Source: Candidatus Omnitrophota bacterium
GTDB taxonomy: Bacteria > Omnitrophota > Gorgyraeia > Gygaellales > Profunditerraquicolaceae
Direction: 5' to 3'
Length of the DNA: 64,000 nucleotides
Assembly: GCA_043808425.1 (NCBI GenBank)
Contig: JAZDEW010000064.1
Coordinates: 11,772-75,771 of the forward strand
Program-made: the position numbers and the translations under genes
Shown here: positions 36,358 through 55,789 of the stretch, one piece after another
How the letters are laid out: the number at the start of each line of letters is the position of its first letter
Position numbering within the stretch: position 1 is the first letter of the stretch
The notes under the pieces: generated by a model
What the model was told of the DNA's origin: nothing
The model's database searches: none
What the model saw: the letters and a program-made list of their open reading frames with translations, nothing else

Positions 36358-36433
36358 CTCGCACCTTCTTTTCTATTTAATACATTAAACCAGACAGCTT
36401 TAATGATGGAATATCCAGAAGGTGCGGGGCTCA

Positions 36434-39593: not shown

Positions 39594-39610
39594 CTATAGG
39601 ACTTGTTAAA

Positions 39611-39904
39611 TCAGAATTGCACTTGGAAATCACTAAATTCTCCGCTTGCCGGAAGCCACTCCACGGTTGTATCTGTTATATAGCGCGAAAAATGCTGGTT
39701 AACTTGCTCAAGAAAAACATTAAGGGTATCTTCTTCCGATTCCGCTAAAATCTCCACTCGCCCGTCATTTAAATTCTTAACCCAACCACAAACCTTTTGA
39801 CCCAAAGCAATATCCAAAACAGTATAGCGAAACCCTATGCCTTGCACCTTACCTGAATAGTAAAGATGAAGCCTCATTATCATGGGCGTATCTCTTGCCC
39901 ACAA
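39611..39904 (-). CDS. acyP: Acylphosphatase
   Basis: VQGIGFR and [12 protein letters not shown] motifs. Confidence 0.75.
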
Positions 39905-40014
39905 ACTCGCAAGGATTTACCTAAATCAAAACCTAAAGCGGCCATTTATTTTACCGTTTTTTAATCTATCCCTACTAGTTAAATATCAAAATTCAACATC
40001 CAACCACTAAATAT

Positions 40015-41067
40015 TTATTTTTTAGCCTGTTCGCCCGCCCATTGCGATGAATTCATCGCCGCTCTTAATTCAGAGGTTCCTCCCACGGCTTTCTCCGCGA
40101 TGTCTTCTACTTTCTGGTAAGCTTTTTCCAACTGCGCTGACAGCTTAAGTAACTGCTCTTTCTGCTCCTTAACCAGGGTTTCAAAAGAATCTACTCGCGT
40201 TTGTAAAACGTTGCGTTCGCCTTCAAAAGATTTTTTTAGGAATTCTTCACGGTTTCGCGATTCTGCCTGGCACTTTTCCGTTGTTTCTTTGATTGTTTTC
40301 TGCGCCGCTAATTCCAGCTCTTTTGAAAAGCTCTCCATTTTCTTGCGTAAAGAACTCAATTCTCCTTCACTCTCCTTCATATAATTGTCGCGCTCTACCA
40401 TCTGTTTTTCTATAGCTTCCCGTTTTATTTGAAATTCCTTCTCTTTCTTGACTTGTTCGTCAGTAAATTTATCCAATGCCGCTTGTTTATCGCGTTTAAA
40501 TACATATTCATAGTCTTCTTTTTCCCGCTGGCGCGTACGATTATCCTCAGCTTGCTGTTCTTTTAACCTAGCATCATAACGTTTCCTATCTTCTTCCCGT
40601 TCCAACGCCAGTGCATCCATTCCATGTTCAAAAGCATTCTTCTTCTCTTCCATCTCTTGCTCATAATCAAGCCGTCTCTTATCCTGCGTTTCAATAAGCG
40701 CGGCCAGGCTCTGGGCGGCTTTATGTATTCCATATATCTCTTCCAGTTCTTTAGTTTTTATCTCCACCGCGTCCTTTACCTTACGATATCGCCCCACCTC
40801 ACCTTCCATTTCTTCCGCGATTTTACCAAGCATACCGCTAATATCCAGCCGCAGCTGGCCAATACTCTTAATCACTCCTTCTACCGATAGGCCATTAGCT
40901 TCTTCTACAATTTCCTTAGTTTTCCTTTGTTCAATTACAGCTTCTGGCCTTAATTCTAACGCGTTCTTTTCCTGAAGTTGTTTGAGTAATTCATTATAAG
41001 CCGCCACCATTTCTTGTTTAGTATTGGTAAGACTAACCTTCCGCTGTTCCTTAATTTTCTCAGCCAT
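40015..41067 (-). CDS. Hypothetical highly charged coiled-coil protein
   Basis: 350 aa rich in E, K, R and Q with a heptad-like periodicity. No catalytic motif seen. It lies at the inner edge of the defence island. Confidence 0.4.
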   Translation of the reverse strand: MAEKIKEQRKVSLTNTKQEMVAAYNELLKQLQEKNALELRPEAVIEQRKTKEIVEEANGLSVEGVIKSIGQLRLDISGMLGKIAEEMEGEVGRYRKVKDAVEIKTKELEEIYGIHKAAQSLAALIETQDKRRLDYEQEMEEKKNAFEHGMDALALEREEDRKRYDARLKEQQAEDNRTRQREKEDYEYVFKRDKQAALDKFTDEQVKKEKEFQIKREAIEKQMVERDNYMKESEGELSSLRKKMESFSKELELAAQKTIKETTEKCQAESRNREEFLKKSFEGERNVLQTRVDSFETLVKEQKEQLLKLSAQLEKAYQKVEDIAEKAVGGTSELRAAMNSSQWAGEQAKK

Positions 41068-41159
41068 TTTGCTTCCTCCTTTTAATTTCTACATCAATCA
41101 ACTCCAACATCTTCTAACCCTTTAATTGAAAAACATATCCACTCATTGCTGTCCAAATT

Positions 41160-41222
41160 ACGTCATTCTGAGCGTAGCGAAAAATCGCGTACCGTCGAGA
41201 TTCCTGCCTGCCGGCAGGCAGG
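41160..41222. repeat. Composite repeat: a half-copy of the 44.2 kb hairpin-repeat arm fused to the 20-nt CCTGCCTGCCGGCAGGCAGG palindrome
   Basis: cgtcattctgagcgtagcgaaaaatcgcgtaccgtcgagattc matches, in reverse complement, the right arm of the hairpin repeat in 44233..44357 (gaatctcgacg...cgctcaggatgacg). It is followed by the perfect palindrome at 41203-41222. Confidence 0.6.
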
Positions 41223-41273
41223 CTTCGTCGCTCCGCTGCCCAAAATAAAAAGCGTATATTTATATCTCAAAAA

Positions 41274-41597
41274 TTATTCTCGACGATAGATAATGTTTAA
41301 TTTGGACACGAGTGCTCTTTCATATATGATCCTTCCCTTAGATAAAATCCTTTTCTGGAAATGTTCTCTGATGTCGTCAAAATCGACCATATCAACTTCA
41401 TCATCTACCGCCATAGAGATTCTTCCATAATATTTAAAAAAGTCCTTAGCCTCAATTCCTTCTACCGCTATATCAATATCATTAGCCGTCTCAACGCTTT
41501 CCAGGCATGAGCCAAACAAAAATACTTTTTTCACATCAAACTCTTTGCTAATTTCTCCTATTTTAATCAATTCATTATCTAAAATTTCTTTTTTCAT
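41274..41597 (-). CDS. Minimal nucleotidyltransferase (MNT-like, pol-beta superfamily)
   Basis: GSxxxG..DxD-type motif (FLFGSCLESVETANDIDIAV). No HEPN partner ORF is adjacent. Confidence 0.7.
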   Translation of the reverse strand: MKKEILDNELIKIGEISKEFDVKKVFLFGSCLESVETANDIDIAVEGIEAKDFFKYYGRISMAVDDEVDMVDFDDIREHFQKRILSKGRIIYERALVSKLNIIYRRE

Positions 41598-41669
41598 TAC
41601 CTACCCCTCTCTTTTAACAAGGCCGTTTCTATTTTACCTTTGGTCAAAAACTATGCTAACTTTCTTCAT

Positions 41670-44126
41670 TTATTTAAAAATATCTAAAAAAAACCGGCCG
41701 GCCTGAACTATTTTTTTTATTGTCTCATCATCGGGTAATGGAATTTGAAGCGCCGGTTTCCCGGTTGCTTCATCTTTTTTTATTTTAATTCCAAAAGGAG
41801 GCTGCGTATCTGATAAAACCGATTCTTCCTTGGTATCGCTGTCAAGCTGTTTAAGCATCTTACCCAAAAAAGAAATCCCGGCTTCTAAAAAATTCCGCGC
41901 GGCTTCTCTAACAAACACGGGTTCCTGGGAAAAAGTTTTCTTGGCCTCTTCTTTTTGGCTATCTTCCTCTATAACCTCTTCGCGCGCCGCCTGTTCATCT
42001 TTTATTACTTCTTCAAACCCACCCCGCGAAACTTTCTCTTCTATCTTAGGTATACCCTCCGCGGCAGTCTCGACTGTTTTAATAAACTGATTAAAACGAG
42101 ACGTTCCCATAAACACTTCATTCTCTCCATTATCAAGTATGCCGGAAAACATGGAACGTTTAAATTTAAGAAGCGACAACATTCCCTGTTCGATAGAACC
42201 TTCGGTAATAAAATTAATCACCCTGACACAACGTTTTTGCCCTATGCGGTGAACACGGCAGATACGCTGCTCCAAAACCGCAGGGTTCCACGGTAAATCC
42301 AGATTAATAACCGTGGACGCGTTTTGCAGGTTAAGCCCCAGCCCGCCTGCCTCTGTTGATAAAAATACGCGGCAATTAGAATCTTCTTTAAACCTGCTGA
42401 TAAGTTCTCCTCGTTTATTACCCGGCACGCCTCCGTGGAGCCAGACGTATTTCCAACCACGCGCGTTCATCATCGCCATAACGAGTTCAAACATCCGAAT
42501 CCATTGTGAAAAAATCACTACTTTAGCGCCGCGATCTTCCAATAAATCTTGCAGTTGTATTTCTAATTCGCCAATTTTATTGCCGCTTCTTTTATTTAAG
42601 CCGATCAAATACGTATCGTCGCTAACCATTCTCATATTTTGCAGAGCCATCATCAGGCGCTGTTTATCCTCTTCGCTCAAAAACTTATACCGTTTCCATT
42701 TATTCACAATCCGGGCGGTAATCTCCCTGTTTTCTTCATGAATGGCAGACTGTTCGGCAGTCATTGCCACAAAATACTCTTTTTCTATTCGCCCGGGAAG
42801 CTGCGCTAAAACTTCTTTTTTCCTCCGGCGTATCAAAATAGGCCTTAATGATTCTCCTAATTTATTAAGATTGCGATATCCAATCGCCCGCCCTGTTTCA
42901 TCTATTATTTCGTGCGTATGCCGAAAACGAAAAAGCGGCCCTAAATGGTGCTTATCAATAAATCCGACAATAGAATGTAATTCTTCTAATCTGTTTTCCA
43001 GCGGCGTTCCGGTAAGGACAATCGCGTAAGGAGAGTAGATTTTTTTTACTGATTTGGCTAACCGCGTCCTCCAGTTTTTAATGCGCTGCGCCTCATCAAG
43101 TATTATAATATCCGGCTTCCATCCTTCAATAGCCTTAATATCGCGATGGATCACGTCATAATTGGTAATCTTAAAAAAACTCTCTTGCTTATACAATAAT
43201 TGTCTTTTAGATAATAAGCCCTGAACCACTTGAACAGAACGATGACTAAATCGCTGGATCTCTTTCTCCCATTGATGTTTTAAACTGGTAGGGCAAATAA
43301 TCAGCGCCTTTTCAATTCCAAAACAATCAGCCATAATTTCACTCGCCGCAATAGCCTGCAATGTTTTGCCCAGCCCCATATCATCCGCTATTATGCATCT
43401 GCCGGCTATTGCCGCGAATAACGCCCCTTCTTTTTGATAAGGGTATAATTTCGCCTTTAGTAAATCTCCAAACGCGGCGTCTTGTCCGCCCCGCGGAAAC
43501 TTTTTCTCAACGCGCTTTCTGCGGATATCCGCGTCTTTGGCCATAGCGATAAATAATAACGCGTCTTCATGATAGCGGACATCATCATCTAACAAATCCA
43601 CCTGTTTAACAAATTCATCAAAATGCTGCAAGCCCTCCGCGATTAGAAAGCCCTCGTGATCGAAAAATTGGTTAACTAATTTCTTAAGCGGATTACTAAC
43701 GCGCCGCCCCATAGAAAAGGCAACGCGGCGCCTAAGCCCATACCTCAAGGTAACAAAGGAATATTCCGGGACATAACCTTCTTTAAGTATCTTTTTTGCC
43801 CCCTTTTTTCTTCGTAATCTGCGTAAAAGGTATTCGATATGCTTACAGGTCCCTAATGTATTTACGGAATAATCAGGGCAAGAACAATAATTAACCCCTA
43901 ATTTCTCTCCCCAAATTACAACTCGATAGGCCCTTTCTGTTTTGAGATTAGTTAGTTCAAATGTTGAAAAAATTAGATCCGCGCCGATATTTTTTACCCG
44001 ATAAGCCTCATCTTGAGCAATCTGCCGCCTAAGTAGAATCTGCCATTCTTCTAAAGATAATTCCTTAGGTTTTACTGTATGCGAAAACCTTTTTATTACT
44101 TTTTTACTTTTTTTCTTTGTGGACAT
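41670..44126 (-). CDS. SNF2-family helicase/ATPase with an N-terminal SWIM zinc finger
   Basis: SWIM CxC...CxH motif (YCSCPDYSVNTLGTCKHIEYLL), SNF2 motifs I and II (DDMGLGKTLQAIA; ILDEAQRIKN) and a helicase C domain. Confidence 0.85.
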   Translation of the reverse strand: MSTKKKSKKVIKRFSHTVKPKELSLEEWQILLRRQIAQDEAYRVKNIGADLIFSTFELTNLKTERAYRVVIWGEKLGVNYCSCPDYSVNTLGTCKHIEYLLRRLRRKKGAKKILKEGYVPEYSFVTLRYGLRRRVAFSMGRRVSNPLKKLVNQFFDHEGFLIAEGLQHFDEFVKQVDLLDDDVRYHEDALLFIAMAKDADIRRKRVEKKFPRGGQDAAFGDLLKAKLYPYQKEGALFAAIAGRCIIADDMGLGKTLQAIAASEIMADCFGIEKALIICPTSLKHQWEKEIQRFSHRSVQVVQGLLSKRQLLYKQESFFKITNYDVIHRDIKAIEGWKPDIIILDEAQRIKNWRTRLAKSVKKIYSPYAIVLTGTPLENRLEELHSIVGFIDKHHLGPLFRFRHTHEIIDETGRAIGYRNLNKLGESLRPILIRRRKKEVLAQLPGRIEKEYFVAMTAEQSAIHEENREITARIVNKWKRYKFLSEEDKQRLMMALQNMRMVSDDTYLIGLNKRSGNKIGELEIQLQDLLEDRGAKVVIFSQWIRMFELVMAMMNARGWKYVWLHGGVPGNKRGELISRFKEDSNCRVFLSTEAGGLGLNLQNASTVINLDLPWNPAVLEQRICRVHRIGQKRCVRVINFITEGSIEQGMLSLLKFKRSMFSGILDNGENEVFMGTSRFNQFIKTVETAAEGIPKIEEKVSRGGFEEVIKDEQAAREEVIEEDSQKEEAKKTFSQEPVFVREAARNFLEAGISFLGKMLKQLDSDTKEESVLSDTQPPFGIKIKKDEATGKPALQIPLPDDETIKKIVQAGRFFLDIFK

Positions 44127-44232
44127 AAATCTACACTCACTTCCCCGCGCTGCTCCCTCTTCGTTCTTTATTAGCCATACTTTACACCTTGATCCCTATC
44201 CGATAAGTCCTCAAGCTTACCGCGAAACTTCT

Positions 44233-44357
44233 TATCAAGTGACTGTTGCGAAATGCAATTTGTGGCGTCATTCTGAGGCCGGAGGCCGAAGAATCTCGAC
44301 GCTGATAAGATCCTTCGCTTCGCTCAGGATGACGAAAATTTGTATTTCGCAACAATC
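44233..44357. repeat. Long imperfect hairpin (MITE-like inverted repeat) in the spacer between res and the SNF2-family helicase gene
   Basis: Left arm gttgcgaaatgcaatttgtggcgtcattctgagg. Right arm cgctcaggatgacgaaaatttgtatttcgcaac. The arms are reverse complements with a few mismatches and flank a roughly 50-nt core. Confidence 0.65.
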
Positions 44358-44444
44358 CCATCAAAAACCCTATTGTCACAAAAATATTCTATAAATTCGG
44401 AATAACTATTCGGACTCAAAAAGCGAAAGAAGTATTCCCTATTA

Positions 44445-47222
44445 TTAACTCAATAATTGCTTAGTGAAAATTTCTTCAAAAACTTGTTCTTTTTCTTTAT
44501 TAAATAATGGCAATCCGATTAATTTATAATCCTTATTTTCCGCTTTCAGCAAATTTCCATTACTATATTTATCCGTAATTTGTTGTAAAAATTCTTCTTT
44601 CCAGCCTTCTTTGCTCTCTTTAAATCCGTTTTTTTTATCCGCAAATTGTCCGCCTTTCGGTTCAATAAAAATTTGATAGTATAAATTGCCTTTTTTGCCT
44701 TTCAAAAACAGCAAAAAGTCCGGCTCAAATCCGCGCCCCTGCTCAAAGTCATAAATTTTATATATTTCTTCATTTCGAAGCAAATAAACCTCATTATATT
44801 TCTCTTCTAAATTTCCAATTCTATCCTTTAAAAATTCAAGTAAACCAATTTCTTCACTTGTTCCAACAAAACCATCCAGCACATACCATTTATTTTTCAA
44901 TACTTCGTTTTCATAACTTTTGCTATACTTTTCTATATTTATACTTTTTTCTTTTGGCTCGCCAAACAAATCCTCAAAAGAAAAAGATTCAAATTTTTCT
45001 GTTCCTTTATATGGATTAGCGATTTCTTTAAGCTTTCTTGCAAATTCATCAAAAAACCCCAGTAATAATTCCAGCTTTTCTTCATTACTAATATCGCTTA
45101 AATCGTTTTTATCTTTTGGGGCAATTATATTGATCTTAAAATTGCCAATAAAATTATCCGTAAAGATTTCATCAATACTGTTTAAGCTCAATTCATTCTG
45201 TAAATTTTCAAACCGCAAAAGCGACAAATCTTTTGCCGCCTTTTTATTGATTGCTTTCGCGATGATATGCTTTTCAAAATCTTTAAGTTTTTTACTAATT
45301 GTTTTACTGCCTTTTGATAAACTTTCCGTGAGAATTTCATCTTTCTCTCTATCTAAGATAACCTGCTGTTCTTTCATTGCGAACTTTCTCGTTTTATATT
45401 CAAAAACAAACTCTTTTTCCAGCTCAGCCAATGTCATTTTTCTTTTTACCGGATTGTCCTTTTTTTCGTTTTTCCAGACTTTTATTTCTTTGAAAAAATC
45501 GCTTTGCTTAAATTCATCTTTTAGCGCGAATTTCTTTATCTGGCGATTCTCTTGAATAAATCCTTTATTTTTAAGCTCTCTTTTTAATTCGTCAAGATAA
45601 TGCGAATCATCATCACTATGATAATAAAATTCTTCCAATACTCTAAGCGGATTTTCCAAATCATTATCAAATTTTCTTTTGTTTTTCTCGCACTCATTAT
45701 AGGCAAAAGGAAAATAACGCACGCCTCTGCCGATTAGCTGAATTTCTTGTACAGTCGCCTCTCCGGCTTTTCTTTTTCCGGTGCTTTTTTCTTTTCCTTC
45801 ATCGCGCCCTTCGTAAAGCCTGACAATATCAAAAAGATTCAATACATCCCATCCTTCTGTTAACCGTTTTACCGTAAAAACCGCGCGAATATGATTATTT
45901 TTATCTTCCAAACTATTCAGCAATTGATCCTGCTCTTCTGTCGTCCTCTCCTTAGTAATTGCCTTATTGTCTTTTGAATTGGTTATAATACAATTTCTTT
46001 CGGCAAACTCGTCTTTAATATAGTTCACGATTTTGCTAATGCTTTTTTTATCATTAATAAACTTAAGCATTTGCTTAACCCTGCTTCTGCCTTGCTCATA
46101 TACCTTAGTTGAATTTGAATCATCTTGTTTTATGCTATTTTCAATGTTTTTTAAAAAATCAAAATCAGCCGGTTTTAATTCGGCAATTAGAGATATAAAT
46201 TCTTGATAATCATTTTTTGATTCTTCAATAAATTTGCTTCTAAAAAGTATTACCGGCTTGAAATTAGCAATCTTGTTTTTAAGCGCGATTTGATGGCGAT
46301 ACCAGTTAAAAAGCAAGGCGAGCAAGATCTTTTCTTTCTTTTTCAGCGAAGTTGAAACAAGGTTTATTTCTTTGGTATAGCCGGCTCTAAGAAAGTCAAC
46401 GAGTTCAAATTTATAAATTGTTTTAGGACGGTATTTTTCTATAACATCCACGTTTTGCGGTATTGTCGCGGTGAATTCCAATAAAACATTTCTATTCTCA
46501 ATATCTTGCTTATTCTTACCTCTTTTTAGGATTTTATTAATTATTGTATTTTCCCAGCTTTTCTCAATATCTTTTTCGCTGGCACTTTCCTTCAATTCCA
46601 AAGGTAAATCCAATTCAGCCTGCCCGTTTCTCATTGTTGAAGCGTTAAGATGATGCGCTTCGTCGCCAATCATTACCAAATCTTTTTTCTGCAAATCGAA
46701 AAGCGTCACTTCGTTTTCTTTAGCCAAATAAACCGCGTTATGAAGCTTGTGAATTGAAGTAAATTTTATCTGAATATCGTCCGTGCTGTCAAAAGTCTCC
46801 ACTTTGCGGATATTGATGGTTCTATCTTCAATCACGATATTTTGACGAAAAATGTATTTGGTGTGATTTTTATTGATAAAATTATTTTCCGTCTTATCTA
46901 CGATATTGTTTTGATTAACAAAGAAAATAAAATACCTGCGGCCTTTTTTGTAGTAATACAAAATCAACGCCGCCATCAGCATGGTTTTGCCGGTGCCGGT
47001 CGCCATATTAAACATCAGATGCGTCGGCTCAAAATTATTCTCTTTTACTTTGATCTTTTCCCAAATTAAAAAACTTTCCAACGCTTCTTTCTGCCATTGC
47101 CACAAAGAATGCCGGATATTTTCCGCGATAAAAACCGGTATCTGCACATCCTGCTTGGTAATACCCAAGTTAAAAGCTTCATCTCTAACTTGACCGGATA
47201 AATCCCTGCTTAAATCATACAT
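44445..47222 (-). CDS. res: Type III restriction-modification system restriction subunit (Res; helicase plus PD-ExK nuclease)
   Basis: Walker A motif FNMATGTGKT, DEAH box IGDEAHH, C-terminal EPDF...IEPKG nuclease motif. It lies downstream of a DPPY methyltransferase gene. Confidence 0.8.
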   Translation of the reverse strand: MYDLSRDLSGQVRDEAFNLGITKQDVQIPVFIAENIRHSLWQWQKEALESFLIWEKIKVKENNFEPTHLMFNMATGTGKTMLMAALILYYYKKGRRYFIFFVNQNNIVDKTENNFINKNHTKYIFRQNIVIEDRTINIRKVETFDSTDDIQIKFTSIHKLHNAVYLAKENEVTLFDLQKKDLVMIGDEAHHLNASTMRNGQAELDLPLELKESASEKDIEKSWENTIINKILKRGKNKQDIENRNVLLEFTATIPQNVDVIEKYRPKTIYKFELVDFLRAGYTKEINLVSTSLKKKEKILLALLFNWYRHQIALKNKIANFKPVILFRSKFIEESKNDYQEFISLIAELKPADFDFLKNIENSIKQDDSNSTKVYEQGRSRVKQMLKFINDKKSISKIVNYIKDEFAERNCIITNSKDNKAITKERTTEEQDQLLNSLEDKNNHIRAVFTVKRLTEGWDVLNLFDIVRLYEGRDEGKEKSTGKRKAGEATVQEIQLIGRGVRYFPFAYNECEKNKRKFDNDLENPLRVLEEFYYHSDDDSHYLDELKRELKNKGFIQENRQIKKFALKDEFKQSDFFKEIKVWKNEKKDNPVKRKMTLAELEKEFVFEYKTRKFAMKEQQVILDREKDEILTESLSKGSKTISKKLKDFEKHIIAKAINKKAAKDLSLLRFENLQNELSLNSIDEIFTDNFIGNFKINIIAPKDKNDLSDISNEEKLELLLGFFDEFARKLKEIANPYKGTEKFESFSFEDLFGEPKEKSINIEKYSKSYENEVLKNKWYVLDGFVGTSEEIGLLEFLKDRIGNLEEKYNEVYLLRNEEIYKIYDFEQGRGFEPDFLLFLKGKKGNLYYQIFIEPKGGQFADKKNGFKESKEGWKEEFLQQITDKYSNGNLLKAENKDYKLIGLPLFNKEKEQVFEEIFTKQLLS

Positions 47223-47248
47223 ATTATTTGGGGTTATAAAATTTTCGC

Positions 47249-48301
47249 TTAAGGCAATATCCTCTTTTGAGATTCGGTATTTTTTAAAAGTTTTTTTACT
47301 TCACGATCAAAATCAGAAACAAAAAGTTTGTCTTGAACCGGTTTGTATTTCTCGAATTCGCTTTCCGCGAAAGATTTAGCTATTTCTGCCGTTACTTTTC
47401 CCGCGTTTTCCAAAATTTTCGCATCGTTAAATTTCAGAAAAGCGTTTAATTTTCCTGACCAGTCCCGCATTGTCATGGGTATCCCTTTTTCCGCTTGGTA
47501 TTCGGCATAATCAAGATACATAGTTACAATTCTGTTTAAAAATTTTATTTCTTTTTCATTAAGATAATTTTTGGCAATTACCACATCGGATTTTAGAATT
47601 TTCCCGTCCGCTGATTTTTTCCAAGTAGTAAGCCCCATATAGTCTTTAGTGTGATTGGCGCGATTGACAATAACTTCCGCCGCCGTGTGCCCATGCGTGG
47701 CAAAATGAAGTTTGTTTTGAACTGTGGCAAAAAAATCTTTGGTCGTTGGAGACCGTAAATCATAATCAATTGCAGTTACATAAATATCTGTAATTTGTTG
47801 ATAAAAATTTCTTTCACTCTCGCGAATATCGCGAATTTCAAGTATCAAATCTTTGAAATACTGCTTACTTAAATATGCTCCATTTTTTAATCTCACATCG
47901 TCAAGAACATATCCCCGAATAGCGTAATCTTTCAAAACTTGAGTAGCCCACCGTCTAAAATCTACTGCCTTTGAGGAATTAATTCTGTATCCAAGAGCGA
48001 TAATAATTTCTAAATTATAATAGTCAACCGCTCTTTTTATCTGCCTATCTCCTTCTTTTTGAACTGTTTCCAAAATGGAAATAGTTGCTTTTTTTGACAA
48101 TTCTCCTTCATCGTAAATATTTTTTAAATGTTTGGAAATAGCCGGAATATTCACGTCAAAAAGTTTTGCGATAAGTTTTTGAGTAAGCCAAATATTTTCA
48201 TCGTAAATTCTCACTTCAATGCCATTCTCTTCGGCTTGAGATGTGAAAATAAGAAATTCCGCGGTAGAATTACGAATTATAAGTTTTTTATCTTTTGCCA
48301 T
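47249..48301 (-). CDS. rhuM: RhuM-family protein (virulence protein RhuM-like)
   Basis: N-terminus AEFLIFTSQAEENGIEVRIYDENIWLTQKLIAKLFDV...HLKNIYDEGEL matches the conserved RhuM N-terminal domain. It is intercalated between mod and res. Confidence 0.65.
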   Translation of the reverse strand: MAKDKKLIIRNSTAEFLIFTSQAEENGIEVRIYDENIWLTQKLIAKLFDVNIPAISKHLKNIYDEGELSKKATISILETVQKEGDRQIKRAVDYYNLEIIIALGYRINSSKAVDFRRWATQVLKDYAIRGYVLDDVRLKNGAYLSKQYFKDLILEIRDIRESERNFYQQITDIYVTAIDYDLRSPTTKDFFATVQNKLHFATHGHTAAEVIVNRANHTKDYMGLTTWKKSADGKILKSDVVIAKNYLNEKEIKFLNRIVTMYLDYAEYQAEKGIPMTMRDWSGKLNAFLKFNDAKILENAGKVTAEIAKSFAESEFEKYKPVQDKLFVSDFDREVKKLLKNTESQKRILP

Positions 48302-48309
48302 AATTATAT

Positions 48310-50316
48310 CTAACGGGGTAAATAAAATTCTTCGCTTAAAGCGATATCTGCTTTGGAAAGATTATATTTTTTATCCGCTCGCTCGCTAAAATTCACATAC
48401 ATTTGGTTCAGATCCAACATTTCCACAAAAAGTTTTTTCTGTTTGTCCAAACCCAGCTTTTTAAATTCTTCCTCTTTAACGCTTTCTTGGAATTTTTTAA
48501 TTTCAACATTGTAATTGATAAAATATCGTTCATAAAGCTCATCAAATAATTTTTCCAATTCGCTTAAATTCTTGGCTTTCAAAATTCTCTCTTTGGCTTC
48601 TTCGTTCCATTTGGCAATTTCAAGATATACAAAATCCCCAGCCTTATTGTTTTCAATAACTTTTTTAACCCGTTCTTTTGTCACTGTATCAACATAGTGC
48701 ATTTGCTCGCACAAAATAAACTGCCGGTTTCCGCCATCTTCTTTGTTTAATTCTAAAACCGCGTGAGCGGTGGTTCCGCTTCCAGCAAAAAAATCAAGAA
48801 CAATATCTTCTTTACCTCGCTCTGTAACAATATCAATAGTATCTTTAACTGTATAAAGGGATTTAGGATAACTAAATAATTTATCTCCCGAAAAAATATT
48901 TTTCAATAGCATCGTACCATTTGCTGAAGCATCATATTTTGAATCAATCCATATCGTTTTTGGCTTTCTGCCATCCTTAATTCTATCCTTCATATAAATA
49001 ACACATTTTCCAGTAGTTTTTTTACAAACCATATCACCTCTTTTAACAGCTTCTAAAAAAGATGGCCGTGTTTGTCTCCAAACTCGTTTTTTCCCAAGCT
49101 TATCAATTGGAAATATTTCAATGTATCCCGATTTTTTATCAAGAGCAAAAATATTATTTTTTTCATCAAAATATATTGGATAGTATGAATTCGGCCTTTC
49201 TTCTGGAGTAGAAGTTCCGCCACTTCGCCTAAACGGCAAAAGACGATAGTCCCCTGAATTATCTTTTTTATCAAAATCTAATTCTTGCTCTTTTGTTAAT
49301 TTAAGAAAATTCAACGAAACCTGATCAATATCTTTCGCATAAAACATTGCGTACTCGTGTGAAGTCGCAAAATGCGTATTTGTAGTTCTGCCCCGTGGAT
49401 TACTTTGCACAATAACCGTACCAACAAAATTTTCTCTTCCAAATACTTCGTCGCTTAAAATTTTCAAATGAGCTTGCTCAGAATCATCAATGGTAACAAC
49501 AATTACTCCCTCGTCGCTCAATAATGTTTTTGCTATGTCCAATCGATTCTTAATAAAAGTCAGCCAAGAAGAGTGGTTAAAACTGTTATTATAGACAAAG
49601 GTATTATTTTCTCCTTCTGTATTATACGGCGGATCAATATAAATCAATTTTACTTTTCCAGCAAATTGCTCTTTTAAACAATGCAAGACAAGCAAATTAT
49701 TGCCCTTGATAATCAAATTATCCTTAATCACGCCATTTTCATCGCGGCGAAAACCGAGATTGCCGCGGTCGCTATCGCTCCCTCGCAATGACAGCATAGA
49801 ATGCTCGCCGTCTCTGTCTATTCGTTTAAAATTAGTAAATGCTTTGGGATCAAAAAGCCGGTCAATTTCATCTTTGGCTAAAACTTCATTAAAGAATACC
49901 TCGTTTCTTTTTTGATCTTCTTTGGTCATGCCGCCTTCCAACACACAATCCTTGAAAGGCCAATCCAAAACAACCTCTTCACGCTCGGAAAGAAGTTTAT
50001 TGCCAACGCGTAAACCGATTTTATTTTGATATTGAGTATACGAATTATCCAGCTTATTTTCATCAATAAAAAATTTCAAATCATTATGTTTTAAAACAAA
50101 AACATCTTTAATCCTGATAAAAAACTTTTCTTTTATTTCTTTATCGCTAAGTAACAATTCAATAATTTTCTCATCCAGCTTATCAATCAAATCTTTCAAA
50201 AGAGTCTCGTTGATCTCTTTTTTTTCTTCATCCCAAAGCCGAGCGTCTTTTTTAAGTATTTTATACAGATTGTCTTTAAATTTGTTTCCCATAGTAAAAT
50301 TTTCCCTTTTTTCCAT
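48310..50316 (-). CDS. mod: Type III restriction-modification system methyltransferase subunit (Mod; beta-class N6-adenine/N4-cytosine MTase)
   Basis: Motif IV DPPY (LIYIDPPYNTE) precedes motif I FxGSG (VLDFFAGSGTTAHAV), which is the beta-class order. A long middle region is consistent with a target-recognition domain. Confidence 0.82.
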   Translation of the reverse strand: MEKRENFTMGNKFKDNLYKILKKDARLWDEEKKEINETLLKDLIDKLDEKIIELLLSDKEIKEKFFIRIKDVFVLKHNDLKFFIDENKLDNSYTQYQNKIGLRVGNKLLSEREEVVLDWPFKDCVLEGGMTKEDQKRNEVFFNEVLAKDEIDRLFDPKAFTNFKRIDRDGEHSMLSLRGSDSDRGNLGFRRDENGVIKDNLIIKGNNLLVLHCLKEQFAGKVKLIYIDPPYNTEGENNTFVYNNSFNHSSWLTFIKNRLDIAKTLLSDEGVIVVTIDDSEQAHLKILSDEVFGRENFVGTVIVQSNPRGRTTNTHFATSHEYAMFYAKDIDQVSLNFLKLTKEQELDFDKKDNSGDYRLLPFRRSGGTSTPEERPNSYYPIYFDEKNNIFALDKKSGYIEIFPIDKLGKKRVWRQTRPSFLEAVKRGDMVCKKTTGKCVIYMKDRIKDGRKPKTIWIDSKYDASANGTMLLKNIFSGDKLFSYPKSLYTVKDTIDIVTERGKEDIVLDFFAGSGTTAHAVLELNKEDGGNRQFILCEQMHYVDTVTKERVKKVIENNKAGDFVYLEIAKWNEEAKERILKAKNLSELEKLFDELYERYFINYNVEIKKFQESVKEEEFKKLGLDKQKKLFVEMLDLNQMYVNFSERADKKYNLSKADIALSEEFYLPR

Positions 50317-50325
50317 AATATAATT

Positions 50326-51162
50326 TTATTTCAATTTTTTAGTTTTTAATTTTGGCAAAAAGTTTTCGCCTGTAATCACGCTTTTTCCAGTTTTTTCTTC
50401 CAAAGCCGTTCTCGCGTCTTTAGCAATTTTACCGCCTTTCTTCGCGGGAATCTTGTTAGCCTCCAAACCTTTTGTTTCCATAGTTTCCGCGATTTGGCGA
50501 GTGGAAAGTTCCGCCAAGGCCGTAAAAACCAATTCCGCGTCAGACATATGATCCCGTAAATTTTGCGTCTTTAACTTCTTTAAATTTTTATGTTCTCTAA
50601 CCGACAAATCACTCCATTCTTGGTGGATAATATTTGTCAAAATAGCGTATTCGTCTTTTTCTTCAACTTCGTTGTCTTTCCAGTAATCCGTCAGCTTATT
50701 CCTAACTTCCTGCCCCATCATTCTTTGCTGAATCCATTTTTGGCTTCGGCCCATTTTTTGCCAATAATCACGGCTGCGATTAAGTGCTTTTTCAGGATCA
50801 CTTATTTCTTTTATTCTTTCATAACCAACTTTTGCAAGCCAAAGCTTTATCGGCTCGGCTTTTTTACTCGGAACCGATTGAATAATTCTAAATAGATGCT
50901 CAGGATTTCCGGCTAAAGTTTTTCTGTTTTTCCCTGTTTCCGTGCCCATTTCTATCTGGGGACAATTTGTCCCTATGTAGCGGCCAAGTTCAGAATCCCT
51001 TTTTCTTAATTTTTTCAAGTAATCCGTGGGATTGACGCTTCCAGTAAGCGCAAAAATAATATCCACCACGGAAAAATACCATGATCCTTTTTGTTCATCA
51101 TAGAAACGCCGGATTTTATAGGTTTCAAAAATTGCCAATGAATTTTGATTATTTTTCTTCAT
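50326..51162 (-). CDS. Bro-N / KilA-N domain protein (DinD-like, DNA-damage-inducible protein D family)
   Basis: N-terminal IRRFYDEQKGSWYFSVVDIIFALT matches the Bro-N fold. It is the first gene after radC in the defence operon. Confidence 0.55.
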   Translation of the reverse strand: MKKNNQNSLAIFETYKIRRFYDEQKGSWYFSVVDIIFALTGSVNPTDYLKKLRKRDSELGRYIGTNCPQIEMGTETGKNRKTLAGNPEHLFRIIQSVPSKKAEPIKLWLAKVGYERIKEISDPEKALNRSRDYWQKMGRSQKWIQQRMMGQEVRNKLTDYWKDNEVEEKDEYAILTNIIHQEWSDLSVREHKNLKKLKTQNLRDHMSDAELVFTALAELSTRQIAETMETKGLEANKIPAKKGGKIAKDARTALEEKTGKSVITGENFLPKLKTKKLK

Positions 51163-51170
51163 ATTTTAAT

Positions 51171-51854
51171 TTAAATTAACCCTTTATCCTTAAAACTTAA
51201 AAACCCATTTGCCGTAACAATGATATGATCAATAATTTCAATCCCCATAATTTTACCAACCTCAACTAATCTTTTGGTAATCGTCAAATCGTCTTCCGAC
51301 GGTTTGGGGTCGCCCGAGGGATGATTGTGAACAAATATCACGGATGCCGCCTTATTTTTGATGGCTTCGGCGAATACTTCGCGCGGATGGACAATGCTGG
51401 CGTTAAGGCTGCCCACGGAAACCTCTGCCACTGAGTGATTTCTACTATTAAGAGCGATAATATAAAAATGTTCTTTTTGATAATCTTTGAGTCTGCTTTT
51501 TATCAACTGATAGACCTTTAGGGGATCGGTAAGTTCTTTACTCTTATATGGCGGGGCCTGAGTAGAAACGCGGCGTCCAATTTCAAAAACGGCTTTTATT
51601 TGTGACGCTTTTGCTAATCCAATTCCTCTAACTGAAGACAGCTCCTCAATACTTGCTTCGGCTAATTTCTGTAAACTGCCAAATTGCGATAGTAGTTTTT
51701 GCGCCGTGACTACCACCGATTCACCAGCAATACCGCGCCCTAAAATAACCTGTAATAACTCCTGAGCCGAAAGCGCCTGTTCACCAAACTTTACCAATCG
51801 CTCGCGTGGACGTTCATCGGCTGGTAGATCATGAATAGTAAACGATTTGCTCAT
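51171..51854 (-). CDS. radC: RadC-like JAB/MPN domain protein (UPF0758)
   Basis: N-terminal HhH region (ELLQVILGRG) and C-terminal JAMM motif HNHPSGDPKPSEDD. Confidence 0.8.
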   Translation of the reverse strand: MSKSFTIHDLPADERPRERLVKFGEQALSAQELLQVILGRGIAGESVVVTAQKLLSQFGSLQKLAEASIEELSSVRGIGLAKASQIKAVFEIGRRVSTQAPPYKSKELTDPLKVYQLIKSRLKDYQKEHFYIIALNSRNHSVAEVSVGSLNASIVHPREVFAEAIKNKAASVIFVHNHPSGDPKPSEDDLTITKRLVEVGKIMGIEIIDHIIVTANGFLSFKDKGLI

Positions 51855-51908
51855 ATTTAATCAAACCATTAACGCTAACTTATAACGTTTTGGCGATTTT
51901 TGTTAGAT

Positions 51909-51986
51909 TGGTCGGGGAGAGCGGATTTGAACCGCTGACCTCTTGCTCCCGAAGCAAGCGCTCTAGCCAAGCTGAGCCACTCCCCG
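51909..51986 (-). tRNA. tRNA-Pro (anticodon CGG)
   Basis: Minus-strand sequence CGGGGAGTGGCTCAGCTTGGCTAGAGCGCTTGCTTCGGGAGCAAGAGGTCAGCGGTTCAAATCCGCTCTCCCCGACCA folds as a cloverleaf. It has a 7-bp acceptor stem, a GCTC/GAGC D stem, a CTTGC/GCAAG anticodon stem with loop TTCGGGA, a GGTTCAAAT T loop and an encoded CCA. Confidence 0.88.
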
Positions 51987-52001
51987 TTAATCTATTTAAA
52001 A

Positions 52002-52676
52002 CTAAAAATTATTATCTTCGTAAATAGCTTTTAACCAACCAATAATCTTTTTATATACTTTTATATCACATAAAATCACGTGAGCTGTACCGTATTTTGA
52101 ACGCCTAAGATGCCGGCAAGGTTCGTCTTTGTAGCTTCTTTTTATAAAAGGCTTACAGAACTGATCCGCAACAATACCCAGCCCCCCTGACCAAAACTTC
52201 TTTGCCTCTTCCGGGCATATATCTTCATATAACATCAACCTCACTTTAATCTTTTTCTTGGGAACCAAACATACCTTTATTAGAAAATTTATAAATATAC
52301 GCAATATCTCAGGGTTGGAATTGGCAATCTCGACTCTCTGCCCTGAAACATTCGAAGATTTGAATCCTTCACCCGCATACAGCATAAGCCCGGCAATCCA
52401 CAAATCCCTGTTAGATAATGGAATGATTTCTTCTCTACACTTAGCATTAATCTCATCATTACGCCTAGCAATATTAGAAAGCCTTGTCTTGCGGCTTTGC
52501 TCTCTGCCTAAACGACGCTGATCATTAATATTAAAGAATACCTCTCTAGGCACTGTTACATTTCGAACCCAAGCGCTTACTGACCCCTTAGAAACTTCTA
52601 GCCTCTGGGCGATTTGCTTCAGCGACAAACCATTAAGGCGCAAACCCTGAGCTTTTTCTTTTTCTAATAATTTCAT
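52002..52676 (-). CDS. Helix-turn-helix DNA-binding protein of unknown function
   Basis: N-terminal HTH (LSLKQIAQRLEVSKGSVSAWV) with a C-terminal Cys/Lys-rich domain and a weak LAGLIDADG-like stretch (IAGLMLYAGEG). It is adjacent to the tRNA. Confidence 0.4.
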   Translation of the reverse strand: MKLLEKEKAQGLRLNGLSLKQIAQRLEVSKGSVSAWVRNVTVPREVFFNINDQRRLGREQSRKTRLSNIARRNDEINAKCREEIIPLSNRDLWIAGLMLYAGEGFKSSNVSGQRVEIANSNPEILRIFINFLIKVCLVPKKKIKVRLMLYEDICPEEAKKFWSGGLGIVADQFCKPFIKRSYKDEPCRHLRRSKYGTAHVILCDIKVYKKIIGWLKAIYEDNNF

Positions 52677-52723
52677 GAAATCAGTATAGCAAAAATTCAG
52701 AGTTTACGCAATAACAGAAAAGA

Positions 52724-53314
52724 CTAAGCGGCAGTTTTTTTAGCGAGAATATCAAATTCAACGTTCAATTTATCCGAGGGGCCCTTAAAATTTAAAGTTG
52801 TATTCTTAAGGGTCTGGGGAATGATACAAACCTTAAAAGTATTACCGCGAATCAACGCTAAAGTTAAACTTATTCCGTCAAGAGACACTGACCCCTTAGG
52901 CAGACAGTAGCGCATAAAAGCAGACGGAACAGAAATCTCAAACTCAACACTCCCATTACGCAGGATTTTCCTGCGCACCAAACCCAGACAATCAATATGC
53001 CCGCTCACAAAATGCCCGCTGACTCTATCTGCCACCTTCAAGCTGCGCTCAAGATTGACGGCTTGTCCGATTTTTAATAATCCCAGGTTAGTATTTTTAC
53101 GAGTGGTATCCATAACCTCAAAACTCACCCAACTCCTGCGCGCAGGGGCGGGGTCAATTTTTGCTACCGTCAGGCAAGCCCCGTTAACCGCGATACTCTG
53201 GCCAATCTTAGTATCAATTAATGTTTCCTTAGCGCTGATTTCTAGCAGGACTATACCTGAACGCTGCGTTATTTTTTTTACCCGGCCTAATTCTTCAACA
53301 ATACCCGTAAACAT
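52724..53314 (-). CDS. ribE: Riboflavin synthase alpha subunit
   Basis: MFTGIVEELG N-terminus and duplicated lumazine-binding repeats. Confidence 0.85.
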   Translation of the reverse strand: MFTGIVEELGRVKKITQRSGIVLLEISAKETLIDTKIGQSIAVNGACLTVAKIDPAPARRSWVSFEVMDTTRKNTNLGLLKIGQAVNLERSLKVADRVSGHFVSGHIDCLGLVRRKILRNGSVEFEISVPSAFMRYCLPKGSVSLDGISLTLALIRGNTFKVCIIPQTLKNTTLNFKGPSDKLNVEFDILAKKTAA

Positions 53315-54412
53315 TTACCTTAGTACCCTTGCCGCCACTAAAAGTTCTTCGCCAAAACGCCTAATCTTTAAATCGGACAATTTTATCGCCTGATCTATAC
53401 GCTTAACCCCCTTGCCCATCACCGAAGAAACAGCGTCTTTGCCACCGATAATCTTAGGGCTGATAAAAAATAAAATCTTATCCACTAATCTTTCATCGAA
53501 TAACGAACCGATGAGAGTCCCTCCTCCTTCGACGATAATACTGCTTATTTGTAATTGCGCCAATTTCTTTAAGGCATCCGTTAAATTAATCTGGCCGCCT
53601 TTTTCCTTAACCTCCAGGATCCTGGCTTTAGCCGCTAAATTTTTGCGGTTCTCCGTTTCCTGGCCAGGCCGGCTAGGCAAAGTAATAATAATTACCTGAC
53701 TATCCCCGGCAAAAATATTAGAATCAGCCGATATACTTAAATTACTATCCACAATTATCTTAATTAACTTTTTTTGAGAAAACCAGGCATTCAAACTAGG
53801 ATTATCACGCAAGACAGTATTTACCCCGACCATAATCGCATCATAATCCTTGCGTATGCTATGGGCAAACGCCCGCGACTTATCCGAAGTAATCCATTTA
53901 GAGTCACCGGTACGGGTAGCAATCCGGCCGTCTAAAGATTCGGCAACCTTAACGGTAATAAAAGGAATTCTAGTCGTGATATATTTAATAAAACTCTCAT
54001 TTATTTTTTCCAATTGATCGCTTAAAACCCCCACCCTGACTTTAATGTTGCTCTGTTTAAGCAGGCCGACACCTTTGCCGTTATTTAAAGGGTTAGGATC
54101 AATCATCCCGACCACCACTTCTTTTATACCGCTTCCAATTATACGATTAATACAAGGCGGAGTACGGCCAGTATGCGCGCAAGGCTCAAGAGTAACATAC
54201 AAAGTTGCACCGACTGCCAATTTAGCCGCTTCATCTAAAGCCATAATCTCCGCATGCGCAGACCCGGCCTGAGCATGAAAACCGCGGCCAATAATTTTAT
54301 TCGCTTTTACCACTAATGCGCCGACTAAAGGATTAGGAGAAGTTTTTCCTTTAGCTTTAAGCGCTAATTTTAAAGCCAACCCCATATAATATTCATCCAA
54401 CGGTTTAATCAT
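53315..54412 (-). CDS. ribD: Bifunctional diaminohydroxyphosphoribosylaminopyrimidine deaminase / 5-amino-6-(5-phosphoribosylamino)uracil reductase
   Basis: HAE...PCxxC zinc deaminase motif (HAEIMAL, EPCAHTGRTPPC) and a C-terminal reductase domain. Confidence 0.85.
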   Translation of the reverse strand: MIKPLDEYYMGLALKLALKAKGKTSPNPLVGALVVKANKIIGRGFHAQAGSAHAEIMALDEAAKLAVGATLYVTLEPCAHTGRTPPCINRIIGSGIKEVVVGMIDPNPLNNGKGVGLLKQSNIKVRVGVLSDQLEKINESFIKYITTRIPFITVKVAESLDGRIATRTGDSKWITSDKSRAFAHSIRKDYDAIMVGVNTVLRDNPSLNAWFSQKKLIKIIVDSNLSISADSNIFAGDSQVIIITLPSRPGQETENRKNLAAKARILEVKEKGGQINLTDALKKLAQLQISSIIVEGGGTLIGSLFDERLVDKILFFISPKIIGGKDAVSSVMGKGVKRIDQAIKLSDLKIRRFGEELLVAARVLR

Positions 54413-55224: not shown

Positions 55225-55297
55225 CAGGCACCTTCTAATTTATTCATTCTTTTTAGCCTTTTAGTTTTTAGTATTGAATACAAAGAAGGCGCGGGGT

Positions 55298-55714
55298 TCA
55301 TTTTTCTTTTTCAATTTTTATTTGATCCAGTATAGCATTAACAAACTTACCCGACTCTAAGCCGGAATATTTCTTAGCTAGCTCCACCGCTTCATTAATC
55401 GCCACTTTGGGGGGGATATCCACCCGAAACAAAAGCTCAAAACAGCCCAGGCGCATAATATTACGATCCACAAATGCCATACGTTCAAGCTGCCAATTCG
55501 TAGCATATTTGCTAATCATTTTATCAATCTCCGACAAATGATCAATCACTCCCCCTAGCAGCTCAGAAGAAAAATCTTTAAGCTCACCAGACATATCAAG
55601 CCGGTCATTGCTTGCAGAAAAATTTTCTAAAACTTCCTGCCAATTACCCTGAGTAATATCCACCTGGTAGAGCATTTGCAATACATATTCACGTGCTTTA
55701 GTCCGTTTACGCAT
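55298..55714 (-). CDS. nusB: Transcription antitermination factor NusB
   Basis: KRTKAREYVLQMLYQ N-terminus and all-helical NusB fold. It sits next to ribH as in many bacteria. Confidence 0.8.
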   Translation of the reverse strand: MRKRTKAREYVLQMLYQVDITQGNWQEVLENFSASNDRLDMSGELKDFSSELLGGVIDHLSEIDKMISKYATNWQLERMAFVDRNIMRLGCFELLFRVDIPPKVAINEAVELAKKYSGLESGKFVNAILDQIKIEKEK

Positions 55715-55789
55715 TTAATGATTTATTCCAACGTATGCGTAAAAATATTAAATAAAATTTTTACGCGTTTGTAAATCAGAATCAAGTTG

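Follow-up and report, generated by a model that had tools for sequence, protein, structure and literature searches.

How did a Type III restriction operon come to lie between core genes of a bacterial chromosome, close to the end of a tRNA gene, in a region whose genes include no integrase? The locus that raises this question is part of a stretch of 64,000 nucleotides (nt), hereafter the window, from a Candidatus Omnitrophota bacterium (assembly GCA_043808425.1, contig JAZDEW010000064.1, forward-strand positions 11,772-75,771). There, the genes radC, Bro-N, mod, rhuM and res are followed by a SNF2/SWIM helicase gene and a lone MNT nucleotidyltransferase gene, the whole run lying between the rib operon on one side and ligA and acyP on the other. 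A previous account made from the letters alone (the sequence-only reading) had listed these genes, correctly as judged from Pfam, NCBIfam and PADLOC, and had presented them as an AT-rich island inserted directly 3' of tRNA-Pro. Comparison with related loci leads us to another history, which we consider probable; i.e., that an old radC-mod-res operon was overwritten by a low-GC Type III operon, through a crossover inside radC and an illegitimate join at the distal end. As a whole, the locus is best described as a core-flanked defence hotspot in which restriction operons replace one another.

Results

Relatives of the locus and two breaks in synteny

Related loci (L-numbers) are contigs from a genome scan with RadC (80 contigs, 69 radC loci analysed), from a metagenome scan with Res (79 loci) and from a protein search, the last of which recovered L162, the nearest relative, on a contig that stops within mod and before acyP. 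Synteny with the window was seen in two Omnitrophota contigs of the RadC genome scan, L001 and L002; L163 is arranged as L001. The window, L001/L163 and L002 have in common the rib operon, a helix-turn-helix (HTH) gene, tRNA-Pro and radC on one side, with acyP, ligA and the next genes on the other; nt identity of L001/L002 to the window is 77-88% on the rib/radC side and 70-83% on the acyP-ligA side. In blastn comparisons with these two congeners, the match stops at window position 51187 and resumes at 44435. Between these break points, L001 and L002 hold a different Type III operon, composed of a mod of 704 amino acids (aa) that overlaps the radC stop codon by 4 nt, then a res of 851-856 aa; in L001, acyP directly follows this radC-mod-res operon.

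Four related Omnitrophota lineages retain tRNA-Pro then radC, two of which also span the far side and retain acyP-ligA, and the same tRNA is found upstream of radC in L001, L002, L023, L054, L074, L162 and L163. Both the tRNA and radC are thus conserved in relatives and do not belong to the DNA acquired recently. The true variable region instead extends from inside radC to acyP, and comprises at least two modules with separate histories.

The left break

The left break falls within radC (51171-51854, minus strand, as are all open reading frames [ORFs] taken as genes in the 20-kb stretch examined, 36000-56000; Pfam and NCBIfam). Over radC nt 1-540, identity is highest to L002 (88.0%) and L001 (87.8%), ranks 1 and 2 of the 69 loci, with L162 at 86.7%. 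Over nt 541-684, L162 stands at 91.0% and L002 at 71.5%, the latter falling to rank 15 and L001 to rank 14; over the last 114 nt, identity to L162 is 95%. At informative sites, an L162-like run begins near nt 530, and 33 of the last 36 such sites are L162-like. A maximum chi-square test places the breakpoint at nt 540-557 (permutation p <= 0.001), and when the choice of second parent was included in the permutation, none of 1000 column shuffles reached the observed value of 28.2 (99th percentile, 19.0). The C-terminus of RadC tracks the cassette: it reads KDKGLI in the window, and KERKLL together with the 4-nt overlap in every old-type cassette. We therefore read radC as a mosaic, in which nt 1 to ~530 are congener-like and the last ~140 nt would have arrived with the new cassette. 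From breakpoint tests and informative sites, the left crossover is placed approximately at window positions 51295-51325 (radC nt ~530-560). An apparent duplication of the radC 5' end in L019 was set aside as a scaffold-gap artefact (a run of N).

The right break and the res relic

At the other end of the replaced stretch, relatives of the new cassette (L082, L084 and L088) align to the window as far as position 44434, i.e., 10 nt past the res stop codon and including the first bases of the next gene, and the L001/L002 match begins at the following nucleotide. The parental sequences share only the dinucleotide AT at this join (44434/44435), which we read as illegitimate.

Immediately beyond lies the 3' end of another res. 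Positions 44435-44360 together with 44238-44164 (minus strand) are ~90% identical in nt to the final ~150 nt of the L001/L002 res, stop codon included, and can also be aligned to L013, a Patescibacteria contig; the translation of the two pieces reads ...FLSPNSYSEFIEYFCDNRVFD / KKFRGKLEDLSDRDQGVKYG*. This old res relic means that an L001/L002-type operon occupied the site before the present cassette, and it thus fixes the direction of the event.

The two pieces are separated by a 121-nt element (44239-44359), which is absent at this point from L001, L002, L013 and L038, is flanked by a 5-bp duplication (TTGAT) and has a predicted fold of -48.3 kcal/mol. It is a small insertion resembling a miniature inverted-repeat transposable element (MITE), which entered the relic later than the replacement. 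What had been described as a hairpin-repeat spacer of 320 bp (the gap measures 318 nt, 44127-44444) is therefore the old res relic with a hairpin element inserted into it. As for a structured RNA in this gap, Rfam hits were to tRNA only across 39-57 kb.

Related hairpins occur elsewhere. One copy, 77-78% identical, lies at L162:1-108, and the family as a whole measures ~100-120 nt and is like MITEs or repetitive extragenic palindromic (REP) elements, with a core motif, CGTCATCCTGAGCGAAGCGAAGGATC, also present in L055 and L063. A second palindromic REP/MITE-like element in the window, at 41150-41250 (fold -37.8 kcal/mol), is related to the 44239-44359 element.

The incoming Type III cassette

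Four genes on the minus strand lie between the two joins. Next to radC is a Bro-N-domain gene (50326-51162; Pfam Bro-N; PADLOC PDC-S13, E = 1.7e-113; phrog_15286), followed by the Type III mod (48310-50316; Pfam N6_N4_Mtase, PF01555, and TypeIII_RM_meth, PF12564; PADLOC MTase_III, E = 3.4e-158), rhuM (47249-48301; Pfam Virulence_RhuM, E = 2.5e-107; PADLOC PDC-S05, E = 1.5e-147) and the Type III res (44445-47222; Pfam ResIII, PF04851; PADLOC REase_III, E = 1.8e-103, residues 23-915, covering 21-852 of the 873 profile positions). The mod and res genes share a strand, with rhuM in between and gaps of 8-26 nt. Both are full length against Type III profiles, which makes it probable that the system is functional; the operon is predicted to work as a Type III system. 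A search for phase-variable repeats in mod found none.

The composition of these genes sets them apart. Background genes outside the block have a GC content of 0.401 +/- 0.025 and a third-codon-position GC (GC3) of 0.388 +/- 0.027. Only four genes are low in GC, namely mod (0.335), rhuM (0.341), res (0.328) and MNT (0.330), with z = -2.4 to -2.9, and GC3 is low as well in mod, rhuM and res. The remaining genes of the block are at background GC (radC, 0.423; Bro-N, 0.380; SNF2, 0.417; coiled-coil, 0.424). The 2-kb windows in the top 10% of tetranucleotide distance all start within 40001-49001. From per-gene GC and sliding-window tetranucleotides, the AT-richness previously attributed to the whole island holds for ~44.4-50.3 kb plus MNT, and not for the rest of that interval.

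Relatives of Res at 75-85% identity are common, usually directly after mod (79 loci, metagenome scan), and their contigs are low in GC themselves (res, 0.31; flanks, 0.33). In L162, mod lies directly after radC and is 92% identical to the window's mod at the aa level and 90% at the nt level, whereas the core/rib operon of L162 is only ~75% identical in nt, below the values for L001/L002. The window and L162 thus share their cassette more recently than their genomes. Taken together, the low GC and GC3 of mod, rhuM and res, the low-GC relatives and this contrast in identity point to a foreign origin of the cassette.

Two of the four genes are extras. Bro-N is absent from L162, L082, L086, L087, L091 and L092, in all of which mod directly follows radC, and L082, L086, L087, L091 and L092 have radC-mod-res without any other gene. 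Likewise, rhuM is absent between mod and res in most relatives; in L123, a RhuM homologue lies directly before res. On each side of rhuM is one copy of a ~75-nt direct repeat (copy 1, 48300-48373; copy 2, 47215-47286; repeat search, families D1 and D2), which duplicates the mod 3' end and its junction, and in relatives a single stretch matches both copies. Bro-N (PDC-S13) and RhuM (PDC-S05) are candidate single-gene defence proteins added to the new operon.

The second module and the turnover of content

Between res and acyP, the SNF2 helicase gene with an N-terminal SWIM finger (41670-44126; Pfam, the SWIM match being weak at 20.3 bits), the lone MNT nucleotidyltransferase gene (41274-41597; Pfam Polbeta) and a gene for a 350-aa coiled-coil protein (40015-41067; phrog_29668, E = 6e-30), all on the minus strand, form a second module that varies independently of the restriction cassette. 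The SNF2 gene, which is absent from L001, is 91.5% identical in nt to that of L002, above the flanking core genes (70-85%), suggesting recent exchange or strong constraint. Neither L001 nor L002 has MNT or the coiled-coil gene, which removes the latter from the core genes among which it had been counted. For MNT, the MntA model scored below its cut-off and no HEPN partner ORF was found, the protein being antitoxin-like; a complete MNT+HepT pair is present elsewhere in the hotspot in L002. The coiled-coil protein had no Pfam, NCBIfam or PADLOC match, and phrog_29668 is a phage family of unknown function. Assignment of the SNF2 protein to Zorya, DISARM or Dpd was rejected, as only the motor domain aligns (with ZorD, DpdE and DrmD), every NCBIfam score falls well short of its cut-off and the vicinity holds no partner genes.

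Content thus differs from relative to relative. L002 carries as extra cargo an MNT-HepT pair, the SNF2 gene as in the window and a Phd-ParE pair, and the cargo after radC in L162 is also unlike the window's. The same block with uniform composition in related genomes had been named as the sign of a stable core, and L001/L163, L002 and L162 are all without it. An alignment of synteny from tRNA-Pro through the rib operon had also been suggested; relatives indeed differ in cargo, but an empty site (the tRNA followed by the far flank) was not found, as tRNA-Pro precedes radC in every relative and other cargo comes after radC. Relatives and GC content together support the earlier view of a variable, defence-rich region between core genes, partly of foreign composition. 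Defence content comprises Type III mod/res, PDC-S05, PDC-S13 and MNT in the window, and MNT-HepT and Phd-ParE in L002. The region is a chromosomal defence hotspot whose borders (tRNA-Pro/XRE relic/radC on one side, acyP-ligA on the other) are fixed and whose content turns over.

radC across phyla

The unusual feature of the locus is its hyper-conserved radC anchor. The window's RadC scores above curated cut-offs over its full length (NF000642, 246 versus 180 bits; TIGR00608, 217 versus 134 bits), matches the Pfam domains of the RadC family (UPF0758 N-terminal domain, HhH and JAB) and is recorded as an identical protein in a metagenome-assembled genome (MAG) of Candidatus Omnitrophota (81-kb contig). 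In the genome scan, RadC at 70-89% identity was found in MAGs labelled Omnitrophota, many Patescibacteria classes, KSB1, Nanoarchaeota and Aenigmarchaeota; a protein database search returned 4,908 clusters at E <= 1e-60, none of the best 120 falling below 84% identity. The complete genome of a member of Ignavibacteriota (2.4 Mb; L040, CP054675.1), also returned by the genome scan, carries a radC that is 81% identical. Downstream of it lie RhuM and a full Type I system (hsdM, hsdS, hsdR), and a tRNA-Ala lies 656 nt upstream; the conserved radC is not confined to ultra-small lineages. As to a phage or plasmid vehicle for radC, this idea was dropped, IMG/VR giving only partial matches of 45-47% and plasmid/phage records ~45% at best.

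DNA similarity between the window and most loci is limited to the radC reading frame. Upstream of radC, the genes are heterogeneous and of housekeeping type (177 Pfam families among 117 proteins); downstream, they have the same orientation as radC and are for the most part defence genes, with families including Type III mod/res, Type I hsdM/S/R, Type II methyltransferases, Phd-ParE, Fic, OLD and NYN, and further RhuM, Bro-N, AbiEii-like, Schlafen and DpnI. A longer unit, radC-mod-res, also moves as a whole, being common to Omnitrophota (L001, L002, L023), Patescibacteria (L013, L028, L038) and KSB1 (L021) at 77-88% nt identity; the similarity spans from 5-20 nt before the radC start to the stop codon of res, with variation confined to the central part of mod, which serves target recognition. 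Exchange at a fixed site is illustrated by L023, a distant member of Omnitrophota with rib proteins at 43-67% identity to those of the window, in which radC and the cassette at the same tRNA-Pro locus are 84% and 85% identical in nt, respectively, to those of L002. Synonymous divergence of radC from the window is 0.68-0.76 for the congeners L001/L002 and 0.8-1.3 for other loci (mostly Patescibacteria), being saturated only in L040, L046 and L053. Seven of the 80 contigs break inside radC, either at their end (L063, L065, L066, L074) or at their start (L067, L070, L078), which suggests assembly forks at a sequence shared, within samples, between genomic contexts.

An alternative reading makes RadC an active component of a self-contained mobile restriction module (XRE, RadC, methyltransferase, endonuclease), which would spread between phyla and land beside tRNAs by a dedicated mechanism, perhaps RadC itself (an HhH and JAB protein and predicted nuclease), such that the exchange seen here would be a module replacement as opposed to generic recombination. 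Linkage on the same strand is tight, with the 4-nt overlap between radC and old-type mod and a spacing of 4-12 nt to the next gene in many loci, and restriction methyltransferases of Types I, II and III lie within four genes downstream of radC in 46 of the 69 loci. The sharing of radC-mod-res across three phyla-level labels argues in the same direction, as do two MAGs with two radC copies each (L005+L065, L016+L052) and a ratio of nonsynonymous to synonymous divergence (dN/dS) of 0.04-0.12, which indicates strong purifying selection and thus a selected function. Published gene-context analysis moreover predicts a nuclease role for RadC and reports its fusion to the ArdC anti-restriction module (PMC3239186, PMC5512222). 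Nonetheless, radC partners unrelated restriction types, toxin-antitoxin and other defence genes, with no single molecular partner evident; defence or toxin-antitoxin genes also precede it in ~11 loci; the protein passes the equivalog for ordinary chromosomal RadC; the tie between RadC and restriction is one of gene context; and the taxonomic labels of MAGs are imperfect. On balance, we regard a working role of this kind as rather unlikely.

A broader proposition can be put forward tentatively. The tight cross-phylum linkage of XRE, RadC and restriction genes, together with an excess of tRNAs upstream of radC (see below), raises the possibility that RadC or its DNA is integral to a mobile module; one RadC lineage would then lead a promiscuous restriction module that moves among Omnitrophota, Patescibacteria, Ignavibacteriota, KSB1 and DPANN-labelled genomes and preferentially settles immediately 3' of tRNAs without a recognisable recombinase. 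This could take two forms: near-invariant radC DNA could serve as a universal landing pad, or the RadC protein could take part in establishment or integration. Gene exchange between Omnitrophota and Patescibacteria has been reported, with restriction and toxin-antitoxin genes among the transferred cargo and RadC unmentioned (PMC12455944; bioRxiv 10.64898/2026.05.20.726742), and for their defence ultra-small bacteria reportedly depend, for the most part, on restriction and not on CRISPR (PMC12455944). A literature search of incomplete coverage found no description of a radC-led restriction module, which is absence of evidence only.

tRNA-Pro and the search for signs of integration

The remaining landmark of the left border is the tRNA. 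tRNA-Pro(CGG) lies at 51909-51986 on the minus strand (ARAGORN; Rfam, 65 bits), and radC begins 54 nt past it, in agreement with the earlier placement of a tRNA near the start of the block. In the island reading, the block from radC to MNT would have entered by site-specific integration at the tRNA-Pro 3' end, the integrase being lost later. Besides this proximity and the foreign composition of part of the block, two observations speak for it. First, in 16 of 58 loci the 700 nt before radC include the end of a same-strand tRNA, compared to ~2-3% expected by chance, and a tRNA just downstream is found in 0 of 61; among the upstream tRNAs, tRNA-Pro predominates, the others being Val, Gln, Ser, Ala and Arg. 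Second, L162 has a 3.8-kb Type II restriction block (L162:5155-8968) inserted exactly at the tRNA-Pro 3' end, which encodes a 658-aa Eco57I/Alw26I-like methyltransferase, a 246-aa protein and a HARE-HTH/PDDEXK protein, is without an integrase and displaces CGACCAATCTAAT..., the sequence that directly follows the tRNA in the window. The tRNA T-arm of L162 differs from the window's by paired changes.

The sequence between tRNA and radC is older than the present cargo. At 51855-51908 (minus strand) are the last ~16 codons of an XRE-type regulator, reading LTKIAKTL*VSVNGLIK, and in at least nine other loci an intact XRE gene (66-71 aa) ends 4 nt before radC (e.g., ...EKIAKALGVPTAELFK). The same relic directly follows the tRNA in L002 and L054 and is displaced in L162; this shared tRNA/relic/radC junction implies that the linkage of tRNA and radC is old. 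In L001 and L023, too, tRNA-Pro precedes radC, from which it is separated by a different spacer. In L019 (tRNA-Ser) and L004 (tRNA-Val), the tRNA end likewise abuts a 3' fragment of an XRE gene.

Against site-specific entry at the tRNA, the similarity breaks fall inside radC and in the old res (the former "spacer") and not at the tRNA; insertion of the whole block at once, immediately 3' of the tRNA, is not supported. Moreover, radC, Bro-N, SNF2 and the coiled-coil gene are host-like in composition, and of the two congeners only L002 has SNF2, while neither has MNT or the coiled-coil gene. The lack of an integrase, transposase or attachment (att) repeat in the block, already remarked upon by the sequence-only reading, is confirmed: Pfam finds no integrase, transposase or recombinase domain in any block gene, and no second copy of the tRNA 3' end occurs in 39-52 kb (25-mer, at most 3 mismatches; 15-mer, at most 2). 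Nor does any integrase or transposase recur near radC across the loci surveyed (117 upstream and 116 downstream neighbour proteins; 69 loci, ~8 genes).

Individual candidates were examined and rejected. A 15-mer match to the tRNA-Pro 3' end (AGCTCTCCTCGACCA, 2 mismatches) at 14301-14315, on the same strand and 37 kb off, is probably due to chance and was set aside because the intervening core genes are syntenic in relatives. The recombinase nearest to the block, of the XerD-type tyrosine family (35470-36357) and unmentioned in the sequence-only reading, lies beyond ligA, is conserved in relatives and passes the XerD equivalog (383 versus 329.6 bits); it is the housekeeping XerD and not an island integrase. 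In a check for an integron, no integrase was found in the block, and the repeats at the junctions correspond to duplicated ends of genes rather than to palindromes of attC type, as judged without formal modelling of attC. In this group, insertions can land at the tRNA-Pro 3' end, but this was not the route of the present cargo, and we consider the classical tRNA-targeted island improbable for it; such a scenario could fit a much older arrival of an XRE-radC-restriction unit at the tRNA.

Rate variation and stable inheritance

Two further explanations fare worse than entry at the tRNA. That no recombination took place in radC, its 3' end merely evolving faster and the cassette having been inserted just after radC by another route, could draw on the lower conservation that the majority of pairwise comparisons show over the last ~110 nt of radC. 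A fast 3' end does not, however, explain why the nearest neighbour changes along the gene, with L001/L002 dropping from the first two ranks to 14 and 15 as L162 rises, nor the run of L162-like informative sites, and permutation tests reject a uniform mixture; we hold this explanation to be very unlikely. A stable, vertically inherited core region, to which the host-like composition of radC, SNF2 and the coiled-coil gene might be taken to point, is hardly credible given content that differs in every available relative, the relic of a displaced gene and the foreign mod, rhuM and res.

Flanking features

On the right, acyP (39611-39904, minus strand; Pfam) is the first conserved core gene of the border and is followed by ligA (37557-39593; NCBIfam LigA). 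On the other side of the tRNA is the gene for the 224-aa HTH protein (52002-52676), between the tRNA and ribE, then ribE, ribD, the gene for a PHP-domain protein, nusB and ribH. This HTH protein is itself variable, being 92% identical in L002 and 64% in L001, and L162 is without the gene, its tRNA lying directly after ribE. Exact-protein look-ups of the window's 224-aa HTH protein, RadC, SNF2 and AcyP returned no match. GC skew is negative in all 1-kb windows of the 64 kb, indicating a strong strand bias. Promoter and terminator scans gave counts not above shuffled expectation and are thus uninformative on operon structure.

Discussion

Proposed sequence of events

We propose the following replacement model, part of which can be read from the sequences. 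The ancestral locus carried a radC-mod-res Type III operon, as is still intact in the congeners L001 and L002. A low-GC Type III operon, of a family ordered elsewhere as (XRE)-radC-mod-res, took its place, with a crossover inside radC at nt ~530-560. On the opposite side, the new DNA was joined illegitimately 10 nt past the stop codon of the new res, leaving the last ~150 nt of the old res as a relic, into which the 121-nt hairpin element later landed. As to the route, incoming DNA would have recombined with the resident chromosome through the highly conserved radC, which would have served as a one-sided homology anchor. No integrase would have acted at the tRNA; the event would instead resemble homology-facilitated illegitimate recombination following DNA uptake, the uptake being assumed. 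Once in place, Mod would methylate its target sites and the Res-Mod complex would cut unmodified DNA, with RhuM and Bro-N potentially adding separate layers of protection.

Several points weigh against this model or limit how closely it can be drawn. The 5' 530 nt of radC are a patchwork of L002-like and L162-like blocks, such that more than one exchange may have occurred in the gene, and the breakpoint is approximate. The donor was not found: among the loci recovered, no other has the order radC-BroN-mod-rhuM-res, and L162 ends in mod. At 2 nt, the microhomology at the right join is shorter than the few bases usual in homology-facilitated illegitimate recombination, and natural competence of the organism is an assumption. 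The tRNA excess near radC and the L162 insertion indicate that some site-directed process may act here too. Lastly, the activities of the restriction system, RhuM and Bro-N are predictions from their domains and profiles. With these points taken into account, replacement through radC remains the history that we consider probable.

Ultimately, our analysis turns what was a vaguely bounded island beside a tRNA into a reconstructed event with boundaries near base-pair resolution, a predecessor, a replacement and both joins. If a single conserved gene does mark a swap point for restriction systems across phyla, this would explain how defence repertoires are refreshed without integrases; radC would then provide both a simple bioinformatic handle for such sites and an experimental route to RadC function. 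Either version of the module proposition, whether landing-pad DNA or participating protein, would if true also afford a testable role for RadC, a widespread protein of unknown function.

Comparison with known systems

A mechanistic parallel is homology-facilitated illegitimate recombination, reportedly described in naturally transformable bacteria by de Vries & Wackernagel and by Prudhomme et al. in 2002. The locus is like it in having a homologous crossover on one side, a non-homologous join on the other and resident DNA replaced in between; it differs in that only 2 nt are shared at the join, that uptake is assumed and that the anchor is apparently reused across phyla.

Mobile restriction-modification units in Helicobacter, said to have been studied by Kobayashi and colleagues along with "insertion with long target duplication", are similar in that operons replace one another, and the rhuM of the window is likewise flanked by a ~75-nt target duplication (of the mod 3' end). 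Some restriction systems also have controller proteins, and a small XRE regulator similarly precedes the unit in some relatives here. In contrast to the Helicobacter units, a gene that is not a restriction gene, radC, leads the unit, which has spread between phyla and not just inside one species. With respect to the accessory genes, PrrC in Type I loci is an accessory defence gene within a restriction operon, and the embedding of RhuM between mod and res and of Bro-N between radC and mod is comparable, with RhuM also accompanying a Type I system after radC in L040. Here, however, the host operon in the window is of Type III, and the roles of RhuM and Bro-N are predicted.

Tyrosine-integrase islands at tRNA genes resemble the locus in their position at a tRNA 3' end, partly atypical composition and defence cargo, as well as in the L162 insertion at the tRNA end; here, on the other hand, integrase, att repeat and empty site were not found, and the recent boundaries lie in radC and the old res. 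Core-flanked defence hotspots of E. coli and Pseudomonas aeruginosa (PMC10121019, PMC10250203) are alike in their fixed site, conserved flanks, changing defence cargo and lack of a mobility gene. Compared to those hotspots, the distinction of the present locus is that one of its flanks, radC, is no common lineage-specific core gene: it is 70-89% identical across phyla, travels with the cargo and marks restriction-rich sites in unrelated genomes at different positions.

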